Below the pieces are notes generated by a model, which was given only the letters and a program-made list of their open reading frames with translations, searched no databases and was not told the origin of the DNA. This document shows, piece after piece, positions 3,995-60,210 of a stretch of DNA of 64,000 bases. Each line of letters starts with the position of its first letter. Within the stretch, counting starts at the first letter, position 1. Both the position numbers and the translations under genes were made by a program. The DNA is from a phage, in the NCBI GenBank assembly GCA_012646185.1, contig GCA_012646185.1_4706.1. The stretch is one strand, 5' to 3'.

Positions 3995-6900
3995 TTAAAT
4001 TGTTGGTTTTACATCGCGTAATAGGGCAATATAATAGCCTAATCCTCGGAGGATCTCTCCACTCCAGAAACCAAAATACATTCCGTCTCTGCCGAGATTA
4101 GCGCTATCTGGTGCAGGACTCCACCCACCATTCATTACGTCATCAACGGTGTAATGGTTGATGTAGTTCTCAACGATTTCGTTATACGCATTAACAGCAA
4201 CAGAATAACCTTTATCGTTGGGATGTCCGTACAACATTGCTAACGACGCACCCGCCAACCATAATCCTGCCATATGACCAGTAAAATCATTAGGGATAAA
4301 AGCGGGAGGTTTATCCATCGGAAAATCCGTAGGAGATTGATAAGCGTTTTCCTGTTGATACGTAAACAAGAAATCAATCCAATGGCTGATGTAAGTGGTT
4401 AACTTCTCAGGGACGGCTAAACCACGATCGAGCAGTCCAGCATAAAGCCGCACCGCTGAAAAGAAAGCCCTCGGCTGATAACCAGACCATGCCGTCTGAT
4501 CGCCGAAGTGGTACATTGTAAAATCATTAACTTTTGATCCGCTTGGCGCATCCCAACGATCCCACACGTACGCACTTGCCCCCGGCCCTAAAACCCCGAA
4601 TTTCTGATAATACCACTGCTGCGAGTCATACCAGAAATTCACAACATTCTGAATCATGAGGTCACGTCGTTCAGTCGATACGTCCATATCCAGGAAGACC
4701 CATGGATGTTGGTAGCCGGGATAAGGCTGACCACGCCAACTGTCGAACGTCGGTGCGTTAGGGATATAGTTGTTAGAGAACGGAATAATACCCGGAGTAT
4801 AAGGCAACGGATCGAGACGTTGGTTGACAATCGTACAATCGCCAACACGTAATGTTCCCTCCGCCTCAAAGGTTGCTTTTAACGTAAACAGCATGGTATA
4901 TCCGTCATCCGTGGTGTAAGTTGACGGTGGATTGTTGATGGCGTAAAGCTTAAATACCCCTTCAGCGATATCGCTGTCGTCAGGCAAGAACAGAATTTCA
5001 GTTGATCCATCCCCCCACACAGGTGCAGAAGGTTTAGGGTCAGTATCAGCGTGGCCCGGTTGATACCCTGAGAGCCTCCATCCGTTCGCCGAAAGCGTCA
5101 ATGTATTTCTTGCTGTGGTGGCCGGTAGCATATACCACCATCGCCAACCATTTGCATCTTCTACACGAACGTTGTAGTCAATCGACGCGAAATAACTGAC
5201 CTGTCTTACGATCTGTTTTGCGGTTGGATTGAATTCAAATTGCCCGCCTGCCGCAGTAAGCTGCGCTTTTAAGAACAACCCATCCCAGGAATCTTCCGCT
5301 GCTTCGCTGAATTCGGTTGTGATGGCGACATCATCTTTCCAGCCGACTTTATCAGCCGATATCAACACAGAACCTGTAACAGCATCACCGGTTGGTGTTG
5401 AAGCTTCATCAACCGCATCAGCAGGAATCAACGAGCCTATTTTGAAATCCCATCCTTTCGGTTCAGCGCTGGAAGGTAATACCAGCTTGTACGTTTTGGC
5501 GTTCGCTTCGGTTTTGTCCAAAGAAAGCGATAATGAGATCTCAACCGGAATTGCAACACCCGCTGCATCTTTACCGCCGCAGGTTACACGAAGAATTGAA
5601 TCACGATTGACGCGGAACGGAATAGCCTGCTGTTCAAGGTAAATTTGTGCTGAAGATGCTTGAATCACAATCCAACCATCGGTATCACGCGTGATTGTGA
5701 ACGGTGCTTTCGATGGGTATGTATACGTGTAAGCGATACCGTCGGTGTCGTAACGATCGGTTCCTTTTACTTGACGGAAGAACTTATCGTTGGCGTCGAT
5801 ACGGGTATATTCTTCAATCGTAAACAAAGATGCCTTGTACGCTTTCTGATAACGCTCCTGCTGCGTTAAACGATATAAGGTGTAGGCTGCTTCACAAAAC
5901 CACTGTTCAGCGTCTGACGCGTTTCCCATGTAGTCTCTGGTGACCGGTACCTGGATCGGTCGGTTATGCTGACACTCGTTCGTTTTGATAAGGTATCCGC
6001 CATATTCAACAGGAACGCGGGGTGCCCACGCAACCAAATAAGAACCGTTGACGGATTTATCTTTGAGTACGATGGTACCTACTTCATCGTCAGTACACGC
6101 TTCAAGATCGTCCCCGTCAGCACTTACGTAACGTTTTGTGCGTAACGCAACTTTCTCGATAGGGAACACCGTACCCTTTGTATCCCAGTCAATCGTCCCA
6201 TCATCATTGGTTTTGAACACATCGGCGTTCAAATTCTGCCAGCCGAGTTTACCTTCATAGACCTGAACAACAAGATCCATGTATTCCCCGAACGTTGGTG
6301 TACCGTGTGTTATTTTCCCGATACCGTTGGTGAATGTAACCGCTGTGTCATGGAAACCCCCGTGTGTTGGGTAATCGTCTTTTGCAAGAGGATAATGGGC
6401 CAACACCGGTTGCTTACCATTAACGATCCAGTTAGCGATCCAGCGTGTCGGTGTATCCGGTGGTTCAAGGCCTGCGTAGAACGCTTTTATATACGCATCG
6501 AACGATGCCTCTGCTAATGTGAGATAATGCGCTTTAAGCTTGGTATCATCCGTTGTATGGCTGAATATACCCGCACCCAGAATTAACAACGACTGTCCTT
6601 CTGTTGTTGCGTCACCATCCGGTTGTGCTTCCTGTCGTGTTGCTGCAATGAAATGACGGTTGTTTACCATGACCCCGCTTTCATTTAACACGTAATGATC
6701 GGTTTCTGGGTCGGTAAACGTTCCTGTGTTTCGGGTTAAGAATCTTGCATGACCATAACCAACGAAATTAACCGGCGACGCTGTAATCATCCATTTACCG
6801 ATAAGTTGAGCAACATCATTATAACGCTCGGATGCGGTGATTTGTTTCACGTACCAGTCTTTATGGTTAAATGTCCAAAGCAGGAAGTAATAAGTTGTAT

Positions 6901-14176: not shown

Positions 14177-14196
14177 TAAGTAATATAGCCGTGAAA
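14177..14196 (-). promoter_or_regulatory. conserved 20-mer taagtaatatagccgtgaaa (minus-sense TTTCACGGCTATATTACTTA), candidate early promoter element
   Basis: Identical 20-mer recurs at 42189-42208; both are intergenic and upstream of minus-strand genes; contains TATATTAC. Confidence 0.4.
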
Positions 14197-27288: not shown

Positions 27289-27746
27289 GATTCGTAACCA
27301 CCTTCATGGGGTAACGTATTGCTGGTGTCAGGCCAAACAAGCTGAATACCTGCAACTTTTTTACCATAACGAGCGAAAGCCGATATCGCATACACTTCGT
27401 TGAAGGAGTCGATATCCTCAATTTCGCGCACGTCAAGACGCAAGGTTTCACCCGTACCCTTCAAAGTCAGATTGCCATCGAACGCGCCTAACGGGATGGT
27501 CTTTGCCTTCACCATGAAGTTACCCAGTTTGTTGATTGCTGAACCAAGGGCAGGGCAGTAACCGGATACGAAGATTTCCGGCATTCCGTGTTCGGTTAGA
27601 CCAACAGTATACATAAAGCCAGGCTCGTCGCTTCCCTCATCAGGAGCGACACTGATAATAGCCCATTGCTTTTTCTCGATATATTCTTCGATAAAATCGT
27701 CCAGTTTTGAAAAATTGTTTTCATTAAGCTTAACTGTGTTACTCAT
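27261..27746 (-). CDS. hypothetical protein (161 aa)
   Basis: ORF, co-oriented. Confidence 0.5.
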   Translation of the reverse strand: MSNTVKLNENNFSKLDDFIEEYIEKKQWAIISVAPDEGSDEPGFMYTVGLTEHGMPEIFVSGYCPALGSAINKLGNFMVKAKTIPLGAFDGNLTLKGTGETLRLDVREIEDIDSFNEVYAISAFARYGKKVAGIQLVWPDTSNTLPHEGGYESCCCPQILL

Positions 27747-28032
27747 GTTCTTTATCCTTTAATGCGTTTTCTAACCAGCGGACATAACTTTCACGATAAA
27801 GGTGAATGTGCCTTTTACCGTCGCGAAAGTTAGGGTCAATAAGATGAATCGCAGCATGGGTTGAAGTCATCGCATGCTGTAAATGTTTTCGTGTTAATCG
27901 CCCAAGTTTTACCCAACGTTGAATATACCGTGCGTCTGCCGCTAAACAGGTACGTTCATCGATGAAAGGTACCAATACCTGAACGATACTACCGTAATAC
28001 ACCATCGAACTGTTGAACATCTGCGTCTCCAT
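27739..28032 (-). CDS. hypothetical protein (97 aa)
   Basis: ORF, co-oriented, 8-nt overlap. Confidence 0.45.
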   Translation of the reverse strand: METQMFNSSMVYYGSIVQVLVPFIDERTCLAADARYIQRWVKLGRLTRKHLQHAMTSTHAAIHLIDPNFRDGKRHIHLYRESYVRWLENALKDKEHE

Positions 28033-30974: not shown

Positions 30975-31994
30975 TTACACCGCCACCTTAGCCTTGATAG
31001 CGGGATGTGATTGATATCCAACAAACACAAAGTCTTCGTAACAGTAATCCGTAATACTTTCCGGTTTACGTACGATTGTTAGCTTCGGTAATGGGTACGG
31101 CTCACGGCTGAGCTGCTCTTTAACCTGTTCGAAGTGGTTGTGATAGATGTGGCAATCTCCACCCGTCCACACGAACTCACCAACGTCCATATTCAGCTGT
31201 TGGGCAAGCATATGCGTCAGCAGTGAATATGATGCGATGTTAAAGGGAGTCCCTAAAACTGTGTCCTGTGATCTTGCGAGTAGCATGCATGATAAGGCGC
31301 GTGTCGGTACGCTGTGTGTATTCAACCAAAGTTCCGTTTCACTGTGTCGTACATCATCCGTAACCCACTGGGTTCTTAACACATCGTTGCGTTGAACATA
31401 ATCAACGCGTTCATCGATAGTGAGTTCGTGAGTGTAGAACTGATAGAAACTGTGGCATGCTGACAGCGCCATATCGTCTAAATCACCAACGTTCCATGCG
31501 CTAACGATGATCCGTCGAGAATCAGGATCTTCTTTGAGTTGACGCATCACGTTTGCGATTTGGTCGTGGTGTTTAACATACAAGAGATGTTTGACCATAC
31601 CGGCGTCAACAACACCGCAATACTCATAACCACGTTGCATCAAAGTACGGGTACGTTCTGTATCATGCGGAACAACCACTTTGTAGTCAATCCATTCTCG
31701 CCATTGTCTGCCGTAAATCGGTCCTAGATTCCCTTCCTTATCAGCCCATTCATTCCAGATACGAACACCGTTATCTTGAAGATAAGCAACGTTCGTATCA
31801 CCATTAAGAAACCAGAGCAGTTCGTGGATAACGCTCTTAAGGTGAATCTTCTTGGTGGTTACCAGCGGGAATCCTTTCTTCAAGTCAAAACGCATTTGAC
31901 GTCCGAATACGGAACGGGTTCCGGTACCTGTGCGGTCGGCCTTATCGCGACCATTATCCATGATGTCTTGCAAAAGGTCCAAATACTGTTTCAT
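30975..31994 (-). CDS. thyA: thymidylate synthase (ThyA family) carrying two in-frame insertions
   Basis: Near-identical blocks to E. coli ThyA: [63 protein letters not shown] (catalytic Cys present), [41 protein letters not shown]; 339 aa versus ~264. Confidence 0.85.
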
Positions 31995-32194
31995 TTTAAT
32001 CCTCTAAGTGTTTCAAGTAGTTCCTGAAATTTATAACGATATTTAGGATTGCTTAACGTGTAGCAGCAGCCATGTACCACGTTATACGCGTAATCAACTT
32101 GTAAACCACGAACCTTCGGATCCAATGATAGATTCAACGGCGCATCATCAAAAATCCACGCTTCAATGTTCTTCTTGGATTCCTTCGTTAACAT
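31991..32194 (-). CDS. hypothetical protein (67 aa)
   Basis: Short ORF, 4-nt overlap with thyA. Confidence 0.4.
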
Positions 32195-32317
32195 CGTTTT
32201 TCACCTCGTCGTAAAAGTAAATAGAGTTTTGTCGAGACGCCCTAATTACTTACAACGTCGGTTCTCCCGGCTTCAGAGAATTCTTAAAATCCGTTAGTTT
32301 TGATAGATAGGGTAAGA

Positions 32318-32347
32318 CGGCATAAGAGCCTCCCATTACGGGAGGCT
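32318..32347 (-). promoter_or_regulatory. GC hairpin (agcctccc/gggaggct) followed on minus strand by CTTATGCCG box
   Basis: Arms 32327-32334 and 32340-32347; box identical to that at 17711-17719. Confidence 0.4.
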
Positions 32348-32359
32348 TCATTAATCGGC

Positions 32360-32908
32360 TTATTTCACAAGAACAGCGAATTCGAGAACATAAATAGCTT
32401 CATCGTCCATCGGATTTGTTGTGGTATAACCAGCGAAGCAATAGCCCATATCCACGATAAACTCGCTAAGTTTATCGATGACTGATGCCCCGATACGATC
32501 GTCAACAGACAGGCGACATTTACGGGTTATGTTTTGCCCGCGAGGAACGCCAGCTAACACGGATAGGAAATGTACGATCCGGTTATTGGTTGCGAACTGC
32601 ATGTAATCATCGTAGTACTTAAGGTCTTTCATCGCAGACTCTACCGTCATACGACGACCAGGTGACACATACTCAGAATAAGAATAAGCTGCGATCGTAC
32701 GACGATCTTCAGTAAGGTAAGTATTCCCTTCGGGATGATAACTCTCGACTGTTCCGTCTTCATGGGTGACGGTCACAACAGGTGCGCCGTACTCATCGCG
32801 ACCGAAATCAATTTTACATTTATCCGAAAGCGGTAGAACCGTACAAGGCTTTGCACTGTTCTCATCAGGGAGATCGTAACCACTCATCATTTTCAAGAAC
32901 ATAGACAT
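32360..32908 (-). CDS. hypothetical protein (182 aa), tandem paralog A
   Basis: Shares MSxFxKxM...D.N.AKP.T...F.RD..G.P...THED...TIAAYSYS pattern with 32993-33526. Confidence 0.55.
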   Translation of the reverse strand: MSMFLKMMSGYDLPDENSAKPCTVLPLSDKCKIDFGRDEYGAPVVTVTHEDGTVESYHPEGNTYLTEDRRTIAAYSYSEYVSPGRRMTVESAMKDLKYYDDYMQFATNNRIVHFLSVLAGVPRGQNITRKCRLSVDDRIGASVIDKLSEFIVDMGYCFAGYTTTNPMDDEAIYVLEFAVLVK

Positions 32909-32992
32909 AATAGAACCTCATGATAATAGATAATAGAAATGATAGATAGTACAACAAATTGAGGGGTATTATCCCACCCCTCGTAGGGATTA

Positions 32993-33526
32993 CTACTTAA
33001 CGATCGCGATGATTTTGCCACCCGCACCGGCGTAATATGCCGTTAACTTACCAGTAAACAACTCTTGTAAAAGACGATTTACGTTACTAACAAAATTAGG
33101 ATTGTCCGATTTTACAAAATCGATGTTTCGCGTTTGTTTTATATCACGATCGATTAAACGGATTTCCAACAACGCACAAATAAGGCGATCGTCGAGTTTA
33201 CCACTCGCATCCAGCACTTCCCCATACTTCGTAGCACGGACGTCCGCATACATACGGTCAACATCATCCTTCCCAAAACCACAGGAATAGGCATACGTTG
33301 CGATGGTGTTACCATTGTCCATCACATAAACGTTACCACCTGGGTAATCGATAAATCGTTGATCCTTATCACCATGAGTGACGAACTCCAGTGTCGGTCT
33401 ACCTAGTGAATCACGATTGAATTCGATAGTTGTCAAACGGTCAGGCACCACATGTAACGTAAACGGTTTTGCATTGTTACGATCGCTAGTATCGCAGTTA
33501 CCCATTACTTTTACGATAACACTCAT
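32993..33526 (-). CDS. hypothetical protein (177 aa), tandem paralog B
   Basis: Paralog of 32360-32908; AAGGAA before ATG. Confidence 0.55.
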   Translation of the reverse strand: MSVIVKVMGNCDTSDRNNAKPFTLHVVPDRLTTIEFNRDSLGRPTLEFVTHGDKDQRFIDYPGGNVYVMDNGNTIATYAYSCGFGKDDVDRMYADVRATKYGEVLDASGKLDDRLICALLEIRLIDRDIKQTRNIDFVKSDNPNFVSNVNRLLQELFTGKLTAYYAGAGGKIIAIVK

Positions 33527-33600
33527 GTTTTATTCCTTAGTAGTCCTAGTAGTAGTATTGAGGAATTTCACCTCATTAGATAGTCTATTTTGGTAATGTT

Positions 33601-33900
33601 TTACTGAAACAAGACATTAAATTCGACAAGATACCCATCGGATCTATCGCCCCGATAACGGTTGCAGAAAACACCGAATTTCATCAAGAACTCACATAGC
33701 TCTTCGGCTTTGTATAACGGAATACGATTTTCGTCGAGCAGAGGGCAACTATGGCTAACCCGCTCCGACGAATCAACGCAACACAAATAAAGAAGGAACC
33801 GAACAATAGCTCGGTTCTTAGTAAAGCTCTCGAATTCACCCACAGTTCTGAACTCATCGAGGAGCTTTGTCGTTTTCTTCAATCGTTCACGATCGAGCAT
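33601..33900 (-). CDS. hypothetical protein (99 aa)
   Basis: ORF with TGAGGT before ATG at 33900. Confidence 0.45.
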   Translation of the reverse strand: MLDRERLKKTTKLLDEFRTVGEFESFTKNRAIVRFLLYLCCVDSSERVSHSCPLLDENRIPLYKAEELCEFLMKFGVFCNRYRGDRSDGYLVEFNVLFQ

Positions 33901-33913
33901 GTTAACCTCAATA

Positions 33914-33954
33914 CGAACATAACCCTCCTCCTTCCCTTACGGGTTGGAGGAGGG
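33914..33954 (-). promoter_or_regulatory. extended GC hairpin (ccctcctcc/ggaggaggg with inner ccc/ggg stem) followed on minus strand by TTATGTTCG
   Basis: Inverted repeat 33923-33931/33946-33954; the following ATG is out of frame with the downstream gene. Confidence 0.4.
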
Positions 33955-33963
33955 GATATACTG

Positions 33964-34278
33964 TTATTCTGTTTTCGGTGTTGAACCGTTCTTCTTGAAG
34001 TCGGATTCGTATTTCACGTTAGAATCGAGAACCTCACGAACGGTTTTATCTGTACAACCACGGGCGACGTATGCATTAAGATCGTCGCGTAATTTACGCA
34101 TCGTTGTTTTATCCGCATCAGAAACATCTGACTTGGTAAGACGGAATGCAATTGCATCACGAACTTTATTCAGCGTTGCTGGATTATTACGCTGCTCTGC
34201 AAATACCGCTTTGATGAATGTACCGCTATCTTTCGAAGCGATGGCTGCATCAAGAATTTCAATATGCTTTTCAGACAT
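33964..34278 (-). CDS. hypothetical protein (104 aa)
   Basis: ORF, co-oriented. Confidence 0.45.
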   Translation of the reverse strand: MSEKHIEILDAAIASKDSGTFIKAVFAEQRNNPATLNKVRDAIAFRLTKSDVSDADKTTMRKLRDDLNAYVARGCTDKTVREVLDSNVKYESDFKKNGSTPKTE

Positions 34279-34329
34279 CTTCTTTCCTTTAATAAACGAT
34301 CATCGTCATATTCATTGCGCAGGATGCTA

Positions 34330-35655
34330 TCACTTCAAAAGCTTAGACACCGCCATGCTTCGCGCCATCGCAACGTCATACGCATCCATGATCGCGTCAC
34401 CGATAGCGGTATGACGGATCAACGGAATACCCATATCTGGATACTCTTTGGTGCCTAAGATGGATACCGGTTTGTCTTGATACGCGGCAACCATCGAACG
34501 AATATCCTGAACCTGGTTATAACGGCAGATTGGTTTGAAGCCCGCTTTACGGAACCAATGCTCTAATTGCGGCCAATCTGTTTCACCACGAGCAAGATAA
34601 TAGAAGGTATCTTTACCGTAGTATTCGGTCATTTTGTCACGAATACTGTTGACGAACGCATTTACTTCGGCGATGGCTTCTTTATAACCCATTGCCTTAC
34701 AATGTTGAAAACAATAGTCGCGCGCTTCCTTTGGTGCTTTGGTTTGCCACCATTCTACTGTTGATTCACTGATACGACCACCGTCAGCGATTTGACCATG
34801 AACGTCAGGGAAGATATCTATACGCGGACCGTTAACAATGGATTCTGGATTAGCCAGATCGAAGAACACGATACCGATTTCCAGCAATACTCCATTCTTT
34901 TCCAGACTAAGGTTTTCAACATCTAAACAAAATGCGGGCTTCTCTACCGCTAACGGCTCGAACGAATGGTTGCTGGTATCCGATTCGGTTTTAAGTTCGA
35001 CGACAGCCGGATCGGTATCCGTAGGTTTCAGTTCTACTACAGCATCATCGAGTCCCGATAACGAAAAATAGTCTTCGAAGAAATCGGATATCGTCATACC
35101 ATGCAAATTGATATCGCAATCTTCCAACCATTGCTTCAACTGGTGCTCACCGGCATGAATCGCTAAACGGCACGGTCCGGAACGATCATCTAGCGCTGCA
35201 TCGATCCAGAAGAAAGCGCGTATAAGTAAGTAAGGATTATACTCCGCGATGATTTCTTGGCTAGCCGAGAAATCGTACACCATTAGTTGTATTATTCCCT
35301 TACGCGTGTTATACGGATCAACTTTCAATCGACGCACTATTTCTTCTACGAATTCCAACGCGCGCGTGTACGAGGTGGACCCACCTTGTTCATACGAACA
35401 TATACCCGTCAAAAGTTCCTTATAGGACGCATATGGAACCATAGGCGATAATTTGTACGACAGTTCAGTATTGTAATTATCGCATAATTTCTTCGGGGCG
35501 ATAGCATCCTGTATCGCTGTAATAAACGCCGGTCCATCAATATCAAACAACCATCCTTGACGCCGGTATGCAGTGTACCGTAATAACGCACCGATAACTG
35601 CCTGGGGCGGTGTATATTCTTTCCCGTTAATTTCAAACAGTAGTTTGCTCATCAT
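34330..35655 (-). CDS. protein with C-terminal DEDDh 3'-5' exonuclease domain (DnaQ/RNase T-like) and unknown N-terminal domain
   Basis: Exo I-like FCLDVENLSL, central YYLARGETDW, Exo III-like HTAIGDAIMDAYDV in the C-terminal ~190 aa. Confidence 0.6.
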   Translation of the reverse strand: MMSKLLFEINGKEYTPPQAVIGALLRYTAYRRQGWLFDIDGPAFITAIQDAIAPKKLCDNYNTELSYKLSPMVPYASYKELLTGICSYEQGGSTSYTRALEFVEEIVRRLKVDPYNTRKGIIQLMVYDFSASQEIIAEYNPYLLIRAFFWIDAALDDRSGPCRLAIHAGEHQLKQWLEDCDINLHGMTISDFFEDYFSLSGLDDAVVELKPTDTDPAVVELKTESDTSNHSFEPLAVEKPAFCLDVENLSLEKNGVLLEIGIVFFDLANPESIVNGPRIDIFPDVHGQIADGGRISESTVEWWQTKAPKEARDYCFQHCKAMGYKEAIAEVNAFVNSIRDKMTEYYGKDTFYYLARGETDWPQLEHWFRKAGFKPICRYNQVQDIRSMVAAYQDKPVSILGTKEYPDMGIPLIRHTAIGDAIMDAYDVAMARSMAVSKLLK

Positions 35656-42188: not shown

Positions 42189-42208
42189 TAAGTAATATAG
42201 CCGTGAAA
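42189..42208 (-). promoter_or_regulatory. second copy of conserved 20-mer taagtaatatagccgtgaaa, about 46 nt upstream of ATG at 42143
   Basis: Exact 20/20 identity with 14177-14196; lies in the divergent intergenic region. Confidence 0.4.
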
Positions 42209-60194: not shown

Positions 60195-60210
60195 GTAATA
60201 TAAGCGTGAA
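60195..60210 (-). promoter_or_regulatory. variant of the conserved promoter-like element (gtaatataagcgtgaa), about 58 nt upstream of ATG at 60137
   Basis: Matches the 20-mer at 14177 and 42189 at 14 of 16 positions; minus-sense reads TTCACGCTTATATTAC. Confidence 0.3.

Follow-up and report, generated by a model that had tools for sequence, protein, structure and literature searches.

Why would two neighboring genes of a phage each be preceded by their own short direct repeats? This question was raised by a 64,000-nucleotide stretch of phage DNA (contig GCA_012646185.1_4706.1 of GenBank assembly GCA_012646185.1), which we call the window. An original prediction, made from the sequence alone, had noticed two related genes on the minus strand, which we call gpA and gpB (Table 1). 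Upstream of each gene is a short AT-rich region with direct repeats that are rich in TACTA or similar words, and the proposal was that these repeats are operator sites that co-regulate the pair. Both genes are intact open reading frames (ORFs), of 182 and 177 amino acids, and they are homologous to gp143 (gpA) and gp144 (gpB) of Escherichia phage vB_EcoM_Goslar, which are annotated as hypothetical proteins. By its sequence, the window belongs to a Goslar-like, nucleus-forming jumbo phage (Chimalliviridae); positions 31900-34000 are 94.8% identical to Goslar at the nucleotide level. Our best explanation, which we rate at a little better than even, is that the genes are tandem, self-contained cassettes, and that the repeats are part of an mRNA leader element that acts in translation initiation and also provides homology between cassettes.

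The genes are related, as had been noticed. BLASTP aligns the N-terminal 81 amino acids of the two proteins with 40% identity (E = 8e-14), and this common N-terminal domain of about 80 amino acids (the N-domain) is all-beta. The C-terminal halves align weakly: in an alignment of the family, they share a few Arg, Phe, and Gly columns. It was correct to view the genes as paralogs, but the pair is incomplete, as a third member, an ORF of 99 amino acids, lies just outside the region that had been noted. The strings that had been quoted from the two upstream regions are exact (TACTATCTATCATTTCTATTATCTATTATCAT at 32951-32920 for gpA and ACTACTACTAGGACTACTAAGG at 33556-33535 for gpB, on the minus strand).

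Are the repeats more than low-complexity sequence? The repeat units are short (two tandem copies of the 7-mer CTATTAT, (TAC)3, and two copies of ACTACTA(A)GG), and they are no more common in the window than expected by chance. We found ACTATCTA 3 times (1.18 expected), TACTACTA 3 times (0.95 expected), and TATCTAT 7 times (6.57 expected). Judged by statistics within the window alone, the repeats would be unconvincing, and the case for their reality rests on their conservation in other genomes.

To study conservation, we compared the array in 11 Goslar-like genomes: the window and ten fetched loci, of which nine are from assemblies and one is the Goslar record (labels such as L016 are our names for loci). 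The spacer between gpB and gpA (32909-32992, 84 nucleotides) is about 87-98% identical to the relatives. In the same relatives, the coding sequences around this spacer are 64-69% identical, and their third codon positions are 44-47% identical. Synonymous divergence in the adjacent N-domains is 0.67-0.78, which is saturated, so the conservation of the spacer is not merely due to recent transfer. The leader of gpB is nearly invariant in relatives whose gpB is just 67-73% identical to the window's, and the core of the gpA leader is invariant in 9 genomes. These include L016, whose protein is 36% identical; there, a hand count over the 43 nucleotides that run from TACTA to the ATG gives about 84% identity with the window, and no indel. 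The number of TAC units in the gpB leader is polymorphic, with 3 in the window (33547-33557) and 4 in Goslar and L002.

A sliding window across the array gives a sawtooth profile. The leader and the first 60-100 nucleotides or so of each gene are 90-100% identical, identity then drops so far that the 3' end of gpB (32-48%) is effectively non-homologous, and it rises again at the next hairpin and leader. The proteins have a similar polarity. The N-domains have dN/dS (the ratio of non-synonymous to synonymous divergence) of 0.01-0.14, or 0.01-0.04 for gpB, and the proportion of non-synonymous differences in gpB is 0.37-0.40 for the C-domain versus 0.03-0.07 for the N-domain. At the level of protein, this amounts to a rate of change that is 5-10 times higher in the C-domains. 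Overall, the comparisons indicate that the leader sequence is under selection, and the upstream repeats of both genes are best described as related, non-random, conserved cis-elements, much as had been supposed.

The leader is also found in much more distant phages. We used an alignment of N-domains (A7, which is narrower than alignment A6, which was too diverse) and back-translated searches of loci to collect 8 viral and 7 metagenome loci with N-domain genes. The leader of the window's gpB reads CAATACTACTACTAGGACTACTAAGGAATAAAAC. The corresponding leaders are TTTAACTACTACTCTTAACTACTAAGGAATGACTA for gp198 of Erwinia phage RAY, GCTACACTACTACTACTAGAAAGGTAATAACG and GGCTCACTACTACTAGAAGGTAAATGAA for the N-domain genes of the Pseudomonas phages Viktualia and Phabio, GAGCATACTACTACTACCATTAGGATAACTACC and CCCACTACTATCTACTACTAAGGAAATACC for those of the Erwinia phages pEa_SNUABM_37 and AH06, and CAACTACAACTAGGACTTAAATT for that of the 45-kb Acinetobacter phage WCHABP12. 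Several uncultivated viral and metagenome contigs have similar leaders. ACTACTA is present within 60 nucleotides upstream of 12 of 20 genes from the family, as compared to 0 of 251 other genes of Goslar (P = 4.9e-16, Fisher exact test) and 0 of 52 neighboring ORFs from the same loci (P = 8.2e-9). Similarly, 9 of the 20 leaders, and 0 of the 251 other Goslar genes, have two or more copies of ACTAC. Outside of the Goslar-like arrays, the copies of ACTAC lie at -17 to -31, with two exceptions, directly 5' of the Shine-Dalgarno (SD) sequence (at about -12). A stem-loop whose sequence is specific to the lineage usually ends 0-8 nucleotides before the motif (judged by eye), and in several lineages, the distance from the hairpin to the ATG is about 30-35 nucleotides. 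In L025/L048 (IMGVR_UViG_3300000333_000045), a sequence about 40 nucleotides upstream of the N-domain gene (GGTTCAAATCCTTGTACGGAGACCA) resembles the T-arm and acceptor end of a tRNA, which suggests that a tRNA gene comes right before this member of the family.

The repeats before gpA and gpB look different, with TATCTAT-like words in one and (ACT)n in the other. The leaders of AH06 (CACTACTATCTACTACTAAGG) and L016 (CACTACTATCTATCAAC...) fuse the two types, which implies that the two sets of repeats are variants of one motif.

Conversely, is the motif found only with this family? We searched IMG/VR for ACTACTACTAAGGAA followed by 3-9 nucleotides and an ATG, and found 23 sites, of which 13 have ORFs of at least 72 amino acids (11 are distinct, by our own count). 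Just one site is an N-domain gene; among the rest are genes that, judged by eye, are portal-like, capsid-like, or MazG-like. We dropped this test of the reverse association with the exact 15-mer leader, as it has little power and unrelated genes are also preceded by the sequence. The motif is not exclusive to the family, which favors a generic signal at the ribosome over a binding site for a family-specific protein.

Does the element act in DNA or in RNA? The leader accompanies the family in phages with different transcription machineries: chimalliviruses and a 45-kb Acinetobacter myophage. The genome of phiKZ, which serves as the model chimallivirus, is transcribed by the phage's own multisubunit RNA polymerases, independently of the host RNA polymerase (PMC4666361, PMC7598289). 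The 45-kb myophage presumably uses the host's polymerase. What these phages have in common is the gamma-proteobacterial ribosome. Furthermore, the gpA leader is free of G on the sense strand only. This run of 32 nucleotides is the third longest G-free run among 255 upstream regions of Goslar (median 12, 95th percentile 25). Between its hairpin and SD sequence, no structure at all is predicted for the gpA leader, and RNAalifold found 0 consensus pairs in 13 diverse leaders with their gene starts. Neither strand of 32150-34350 matched any family in Rfam 15 (E ≤ 1), and a literature search for an ACUAC-type leader found nothing relevant. We prefer an RNA-level explanation because of the different polymerases, the G-free run on the sense strand only, the lack of structure, and the unrelated genes with the same leader.

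AU-rich, unstructured 5' leaders are known to enhance translation in E. coli via ribosomal protein S1; examples are the epsilon sequence of T7 gene 10 and the omega leader of tobacco mosaic virus. The leaders of this family resemble such enhancers in having a G-poor, single-stranded stretch directly 5' of the SD sequence, with (U/C)UAC-like direct repeats and no predicted structure. They differ in that ACUAC/UACUAUCUAU is conserved with one gene family across distant phages, and their enhancement of translation is a prediction.

In the explanation that we favor, each N-domain gene would carry its own 5' unit, which consists of a stable stem-loop, a G-poor stretch with ACTAC/TACTATCTAT, a good SD sequence, and the gene's first 80 or so codons, which are strongly conserved. 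The repeats would be a linear, single-stranded element of the mRNA leader that acts at translation initiation, and the leader might be a standby or enhancer site for the ribosome, or a site for a host factor that gamma-proteobacteria share. The element would leave the ribosome-binding site accessible even though strong hairpins punctuate the rest of the transcript, and these hairpins would be terminators, attenuators, or RNA-stabilizing ends between genes. The leader and the 5' end of the coding sequence would also supply homology for the gain, loss, and swap of cassettes, as they are nearly identical between the cassettes of different genomes and as short repeats are shared within a genome. 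We infer that the element acts in the RNA and affects translation, and the same goes for the transcription starts and for recombination at the repeats.

Several observations weigh against this explanation. That the motif lies within the mRNA is deduced from the sequence. The window's gpA leader has TACTATC rather than an exact ACTAC, so its link to the motif rests on the intermediates in L016 and AH06. ACTAC itself lies upstream of 12 of the 251 other Goslar genes, which we estimate to be about the chance level, so the motif is not a general enhancer in Goslar. By a rough estimate, the 23 sites from the IMG/VR search are about what chance would give in a collection of this size. If all that is needed is an open, AU-rich leader, it is not obvious why this exact sequence was kept over such a distance. 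And the microhomologies at the junctions between cassettes (see below) are 5-9 nucleotides long, which is suggestive and is no proof of a mechanism.

The hairpin with ggggt/acccc arms upstream of gpA, which had been noticed along with the repeats, is present as GAGGGGT/ACCCCTC. Instead of being part of an operator, it is a terminator-like stem-loop between gpB and gpA, with a folding energy of -14.7 kcal/mol (z = -2.1). It fits the consensus of an intrinsic terminator (8 pairs and then AATTTGTTGT) and may act as one on the phage's RNA polymerases. Its counterpart in Goslar is annotated as a putative terminator. The stem has four Gs and four Cs in the window versus five and five in all of the relatives, which is a compensatory double indel that maintains pairing. 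Equivalent hairpins precede the other cassettes. The stem-loop that closes the array is also an annotated terminator in Goslar and is conserved in the relatives; a 63-nucleotide segment around it folds with -19.5 kcal/mol (z = -3.5), and TTATGCCG, which follows it, is an enriched motif in the intergenic DNA of Goslar. We conclude that the ggggt/acccc hairpin is punctuation between genes.

The array lies in a variable region between the capsid latch gene and thyA, and the number of N-domain genes varies from 1 to 3. L016 has a single N-domain gene (its protein and gpA are 36% identical). Two are present in the window, Goslar, and L005. In L002, L003, L006, and L007, there is a third, which encodes a paralog of 200-201 amino acids, and in L017 and L018 the third gene encodes a different paralog of 181 amino acids. 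Between gpA and a small gene on the side of thyA, the relatives also have a DUF7448 gene (287-294 amino acids) and, mostly, a gene of 109 amino acids. At this place, the window and Goslar have a gap of 165 base pairs (32195-32359) before a 67-amino-acid gene that is beside thyA. Relative to the relatives, this gap is a deletion, and the window retains about the first 70 nucleotides past the hairpin.

The junctions of these indels and replacements are at the hairpin and the TAC motif. In the three-gene genomes, the extra gene has a hairpin and (A/T)TTACTACT on either flank. For example, in L002, the gene for the 200-amino-acid paralog is flanked by CCTCGTTACTACT on one side and by CTTCATTACTACT on the other. 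The two-gene genomes, including the window, have a single fused junction, CCTCAATACTACTACTAGG, and L016 has CCTCACTACTATCTATC. The locus is also a mosaic: between the window and L002, gpA is 94% identical but gpB is just 65% identical, which implies that there are recombination junctions in or near the conserved spacer. The junctions fit deletion or insertion through recombination at short repeats.

These units are reminiscent of the PeSLs (promoter-early stem-loops) of T4-type phages, which consist of a stop codon, a polyG/polyC stem-loop, an AT-rich promoter, an SD sequence, and a start codon (PMC2839356, PMC4122927). They border ORFans in hyperplastic regions, where modules are shuffled through them (Arbiol et al. 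2010, PMC2839356; Comeau et al. 2014, PMC4122927). Like PeSLs, the units in the array are small and composite, with the same anatomy, and lie beside genes that are non-essential and of unknown function, in a part of the genome that varies. They also have a stable polyG/polyC stem-loop between the upstream stop codon and the SD sequence (at 32961-32982), and they bound the indels and replacements between related genomes. However, they have no sigma-70-type promoter on the gene strand, they are in one array and tied to one gene family (PeSLs are dispersed in the genome), and their conservation runs into the first 60-100 nucleotides or so of the coding sequence. By this analogy, we consider the units to be PeSL-like in how they work, and not members of the PeSL family.

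Where might transcription of the array begin? In an alignment of 10 genomes (A5), the same module of about 55 nucleotides lies before the first N-domain gene, whichever paralog follows. Its consensus is GTTTCAGTAAAACATTACC-N13-TATCT-N-ATGAGG-loop-CCTCA, and divergence begins directly after the module's hairpin, at the TAC motif. (The module hairpin of L016 has a different loop and better pairing.) Within the module is AACATTACC at 33592-33600, whose TTACC is kept in 7 of the 10 genomes; its spacing to the hairpin is fixed in nine. This box lies 22 nucleotides before the G of ATGAGG and resembles the middle promoter motif of phiKZ, which is AAanTTACc, centered at about -24 (PMC4666361). The module also resembles the skeleton of Goslar's early promoters, TTTCAG-N6-ATTACC. 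The module is a candidate for a promoter with a 5' stem-loop. A TATG at 33918-33921 is a candidate for a second start, for a transcript over the 99-amino-acid gene, gpB, and gpA, and its arrangement after a hairpin before the array is conserved in the relatives and is also seen in L016, L023, and L034. We did consider AAnnTTACC as a general middle promoter, but its enrichment in Goslar's intergenic DNA is weak and not clear, so we retain it as a candidate for the upstream module only. We rejected two other candidates. TTGTTG-N16-TATTAT in the gpA leader, which by eye looked like a sigma-70 promoter, fails a consensus scan, and such sites are depleted: 32150-34350 contains 1 sigma-70-like site, versus 5.3 ± 3.0 in shuffled sequences, and none on the gene strand. 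This depletion fits a phage that makes no use of the host RNA polymerase. As for 'ATGAGG' as a class of fused start site and SD sequence, GAGG preceded by AT is not among the common contexts before Goslar's start codons.

With these results in hand, the alternatives to a leader that acts in translation can be weighed. We consider it quite unlikely that the repeats act in DNA, as operators for a regulator or as promoter elements for a phage RNA polymerase, and thereby co-regulate the paralogs at transcription. The repeats are common to the paralogs and are conserved, in related and in very distant genomes, so the idea passes the conservation check that the original prediction had set for its refutation; and besides the resemblance of AACATTACC to the phiKZ middle motif and to Goslar's early skeleton, ACATTACC is 7-fold enriched in Goslar's intergenic DNA. 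But the promoter-like box is in the upstream module, outside the TACTA repeats, and sigma-70-like promoters are depleted, with none on the gene strand. The repeats themselves are direct, and an inverted-repeat analysis found no dyad symmetry. They mostly lie in the 20-30 nucleotides that abut the SD sequence on its 5' side, in several lineages with just 30-35 nucleotides or so between hairpin and ATG. A search for TACTA repeats found no recurrence in other intergenic DNA of the window or of Goslar: the intergenic DNA of Goslar has ACTACT 9 times, of which 4 are in the gpB leader, and TACTAYCTA in the gpA leader only. Similarly, a BLAST with short words of the region against the complete Goslar genome found no further match to the two leaders or the upstream module. 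The gpA leader is asymmetric between its strands, and the repeats follow the gene into phages with unrelated transcription systems. And neither the family's proteins nor the adjacent genes that we scanned matched any known protein family, DNA-binding or otherwise. It is also unlikely that the units are just recombination linkers, kept mainly for the modular exchange of cassettes, with no specific role in expression. The variable size of the array, the sawtooth profile, the mosaic alleles, and the indels bounded by units all fit with this, as does the PeSL-like anatomy (stop codon, polyG/polyC stem-loop, AT-rich stretch, SD sequence, start). However, selection for future recombination is a weak force. 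ACTACTA is retained beside the SD sequence of single-copy genes in distant phages, the length to the ATG is strictly conserved, and the repeats that are shared within a genome are just 5-9 nucleotides.

Another idea is that the ACUAC repeats are a specific site in RNA for a dedicated factor, which might be the N-domain protein (translational autoregulation) or a toxin of the host that cuts mRNA. With either factor, the cassette's expression would depend on a signal. PemK/Kid-type toxins cut at UAC, and ChpBK-type toxins cut at ACY. The motif is tied to the family across very distant phages, it has preserved its sequence as well as its composition despite the saturation of synonymous sites, and the fast-evolving C-domains suggest an arms-race type of function. 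Still, we think this very unlikely. The N-domain is strongly acidic, in contrast to an RNA-binding domain, which disfavors autoregulation by RNA binding (by hand counts, the net charge is about -7 for residues 1-82 of gpA and about -5 for P0130, a stand-alone relative). Also, unrelated genes elsewhere have the same leader, the leaders showed neither structure nor covariation, and searches by sequence and structure found no defence-related or RNA-binding similarity for the family's proteins. As for a neutral by-product, that is, slippage-prone, low-complexity remnants of tandem duplication, we rate it as highly improbable. In its favor, the number of TAC units varies from 3 to 4, and the repeats are short, with no enrichment in the window. 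But change in the leader is several-fold slower than at the adjacent synonymous sites, lineages with 30-40% protein identity retain it, and these conservation data largely refute this idea. A bolder version of the RNA-level explanation is that the ACUAC leader is an undescribed, sequence-specific cis-regulatory RNA element that travels with the N-domain module of about 77 amino acids (PHROG 10337/10807), is recognized by a dedicated partner, and switches the cassettes on under a particular condition. Possible partners are the protein itself, a factor that is conserved among hosts, and a toxin of the host that cuts mRNA, and the condition may be the host's defence response. We see this as a rather unlikely outcome.

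Table 1. Features of the array and its upstream boundary, in the direction of the genes
Feature	Positions	Strand	Description
gp146 homologue (104 amino acids)	33964-34278	-	ORF; 95% identical to the orthologue in L005; upstream boundary of the array
32-nucleotide GC-rich stem-loop CCCTCCTCCAACCCGTAAGGGAAGGAGGAGGG	33923-33954	-	GTAA loop; family of dispersed hairpins; followed by TTATG
TATG	33918-33921	-	Candidate phiKZ-type late start; right after the hairpin and 17 nucleotides 5' of the ATG of the 99-amino-acid gene
99-amino-acid ORF, C-domain only	33601-33900	-	Homologous to gpA residues ~91-182
Upstream module TAAAACATTACC-N13-TATCTAATGAGGTGAAATTCCTC	33560-33603	-	TTACC box at 33592-33600; small stem-loop at 33560-33574
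gpB leader AAT-ACTACTACTAGGACTACTAAGG-AATAAAAC	33527-33559	-	(TAC)3, then ACTACTA(A)GG twice; the second contains the SD sequence AAGGA
gpB	32993-33526	-	N-terminal beta domain and fast-evolving C-terminal part; homologue of Goslar gp144
Stem-loop between gpB and gpA, GAGGGGT-GGGATAAT-ACCCCTC, then AATTTGTTGT	32961-32982	-	Terminator-like or attenuator-like
gpA leader	32909-32960	-	G-free 32 nucleotides TACTATCTATCATTTCTATTATCTATTATCAT at 32951-32920; SD sequence GAGG at 32919-32916; 8-nucleotide spacer
gpA	32360-32908	-	N-terminal beta domain and alpha/beta C-domain; homologue of Goslar gp143
Array-closing stem-loop GAAGCCTCCC-GTAA-TGGGAGGCTC (32349-32326), then TTATGCCG (32325-32318)	32318-32349	-	Terminator-like

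The array begins with the 99-amino-acid, C-domain-only gene, which is followed by gpB, the stem-loop, gpA, and a terminator-like hairpin. On its upstream side is the homologue of Goslar gp146, which is the capsid "latch" protein, with 55 copies (bioRxiv 10.64898/2026.04.21.720040, Table S4). (We tied the proteins in Table S4 to the GenBank numbering by the order of their YP accessions and by their masses.) The usual layout of the family is an N-domain of about 80 amino acids and a C-domain of about 95 amino acids, and one gene has the C-domain only. BLASTP relates the 99-amino-acid ORF to gpA with E = 5e-6 in the window, and with E = 1e-11 for the orthologues from L006 and L007. Intact orthologues of this ORF are present in L002, L005, L006, L007, L017, and L018.

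When we compared a hidden Markov model (HMM) of the family to all ORFs of Goslar, we found exactly three members: gp143, gp144, and an unannotated ORF on the minus strand at 134263-134595 (MK327938; E = 1e-23). At this location, Goslar's annotation has a plus-strand gene, gp145 (134413-134640), which overlaps the minus-strand ORF. gp145 is probably a mis-call, given that at least 6 relatives conserve the minus-strand ORF and that this ORF matches the family's HMM with E = 1e-23.

What kind of protein is this? A model of gpA from AlphaFold2 (mean pLDDT 79.4) predicts an N-domain of seven beta strands (residues 1-76) and a helix-rich, alpha/beta C-domain. The family's proteins have no significant match in Pfam or NCBIfam. 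A sequence search of the PDB with gpA found no match (the best E value was 0.13), and neither did a search of the PDB with the gpA model and Foldseek (best E = 0.03). In BFVD, a library of viral structures, the matches are all uncharacterized, and those with names are from jumbo phages, namely Erwinia phage MadMel and the Pseudomonas phages Phabio and 201phi2-1. gpB matches PHROG 10337 (E = 2.6e-7) and PHROG 10807 (E = 1.5e-5), gpA matches both weakly (E of about 5e-3 each), and stand-alone relatives match them with E = 1e-11 to 1e-12. These PHROGs cover the N-domains, with the C-domains outside, and both are families of unknown function.

More broadly, a sensitive profile search found 160 representative clusters. 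For nearly all of these, the match is to the N-domain alone (about 77 amino acids), and it begins at or near residue 1. Many of the members are stand-alone proteins of 72-100 amino acids, and others have unrelated C-terminal extensions of up to about 480 amino acids. N-domain relatives are found in phages of Erwinia, Pseudomonas, Proteus, Salmonella, and Acinetobacter. For example, in Acinetobacter myophages of about 45 kb (Obolenskvirus), a stand-alone N-domain gene comes after the genes for terminase, portal, and head morphogenesis.

A literature search on gp143 and gp144 of Goslar found nothing relevant. In a mass-spectrometry table for the Goslar virion, gp143 has 3 peptides (an estimated 4.5-10.5 copies) and gp144 has 2 peptides (an estimated 1.1-2.6 copies). 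We rejected the idea that they are components of the virion, as their detection is no higher than that of non-structural enzymes: dTMP kinase, RNase HI, SbcC, and DNA ligase are at similar levels in the same table, and the subunits of the non-virion RNA polymerase (nvRNAP) and the DNA polymerase are lower. The peptides mean that both proteins are made, and no more than that.

We also noticed some motifs that may relate to transcription elsewhere in these genomes. The promoters of phiKZ have consensus sequences, and the early type is TATATTAC (PMC4666361, PMC7598289). In the window, TATATTAC is found on the minus strand at 14180-14187, 42192-42199, and 60195-60202, and at the first two of these places it lies inside (A-rich)TTTCACGGCTATATTACTTA(N)GTGA. 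Motifs that are enriched in Goslar's intergenic DNA include an A-rich segment with TTTCACGGCTATATTACTTA and a hairpin with TTTATGCCGT, as well as ACATTACC. There are six intergenic copies of the (A-rich)TTTCACGGCTATATTACTTA motif in Goslar, one of which is upstream of the chimallin gene. (A-rich)TTTCACGGCTATATTACTTA(N)GTGA looks like the consensus of an early promoter for the virion RNA polymerase and is close to the early motif of phiKZ.

The hairpin with TTTATGCCGT resembles the late start of phiKZ, which is T-3ATG+1 (PMC4666361). A hairpin followed by TTATGC(C/T)G is 5- to 13-fold enriched in Goslar's intergenic DNA. In the window, TTATGC(C/T)G occurs on the minus strand at 4438, 10850, 17711, 23832, 25243, 32318, 40362, and 52534, and on the plus strand at 5964, 9281, 11763, and 55599. 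It is often right after a GC-rich hairpin, and a hairpin with TTTTATGCC is also found in further contigs, viral and metagenomic (L023 and L034). TTATGC(C/T)G is a candidate for a late start site (as in phiKZ) that is fused to terminators. Overall, the window shares with phiKZ-type promoters the early-type motifs with TTTCACGGCTATATTACTTA, the TTACC box, and the TATG after terminator hairpins. The difference is that these motifs lie beside the TACTA repeats and not inside them, and that the sites in Goslar are candidates, predicted from its genome.

The 32-nucleotide hairpin CCCTCCTCCAACCCGTAAGGGAAGGAGGAGGG was the sole dispersed element in the BLAST of the region against Goslar. There are at least 10 full or partial copies in Goslar, with partial copies at both ends of the record. 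The copies are at 27746, 48107, 71990, 61012, 97886, 4156, 49783, 174274, 1-25, and 237246-237277. They are mostly followed by TTATG, and those at the ends of the (linear) Goslar record are near-complete or partial. The copy at 27746-27777 is annotated as a putative terminator.

While collecting loci, we saw that Goslar-like genomes of about 235-250 kb are common in isolate assemblies that are labelled as Salmonella enterica, E. coli, Shigella flexneri, or Enterobacter hormaechei. This suggests that these phages travel along in cultures, in a carrier state or as contamination.

Post-transcriptional control in nucleus-forming jumbo phages is almost uncharted, even though their mRNAs must exit the phage nucleus to be translated. 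A leader motif that is under selection and that precedes one accessory family in phages of E. coli, Erwinia, Pseudomonas, and Acinetobacter gives a tangible way into this problem, and it can be tested with reporters. The array also indicates that PeSL-like shuffling of cassettes can operate in a family of phages that, judging from phiKZ, does not rely on host promoters. The ingredients for shuffling would be units of a stem-loop and a leader, a conserved 5' end of the gene, and hypervariable 3' ends. Finally, the locus defines a family of two-domain proteins, with a constrained N-terminal module and fast-changing C-terminal modules. This combination is typical of proteins that interact with the host, which makes the family a candidate for functional screens.

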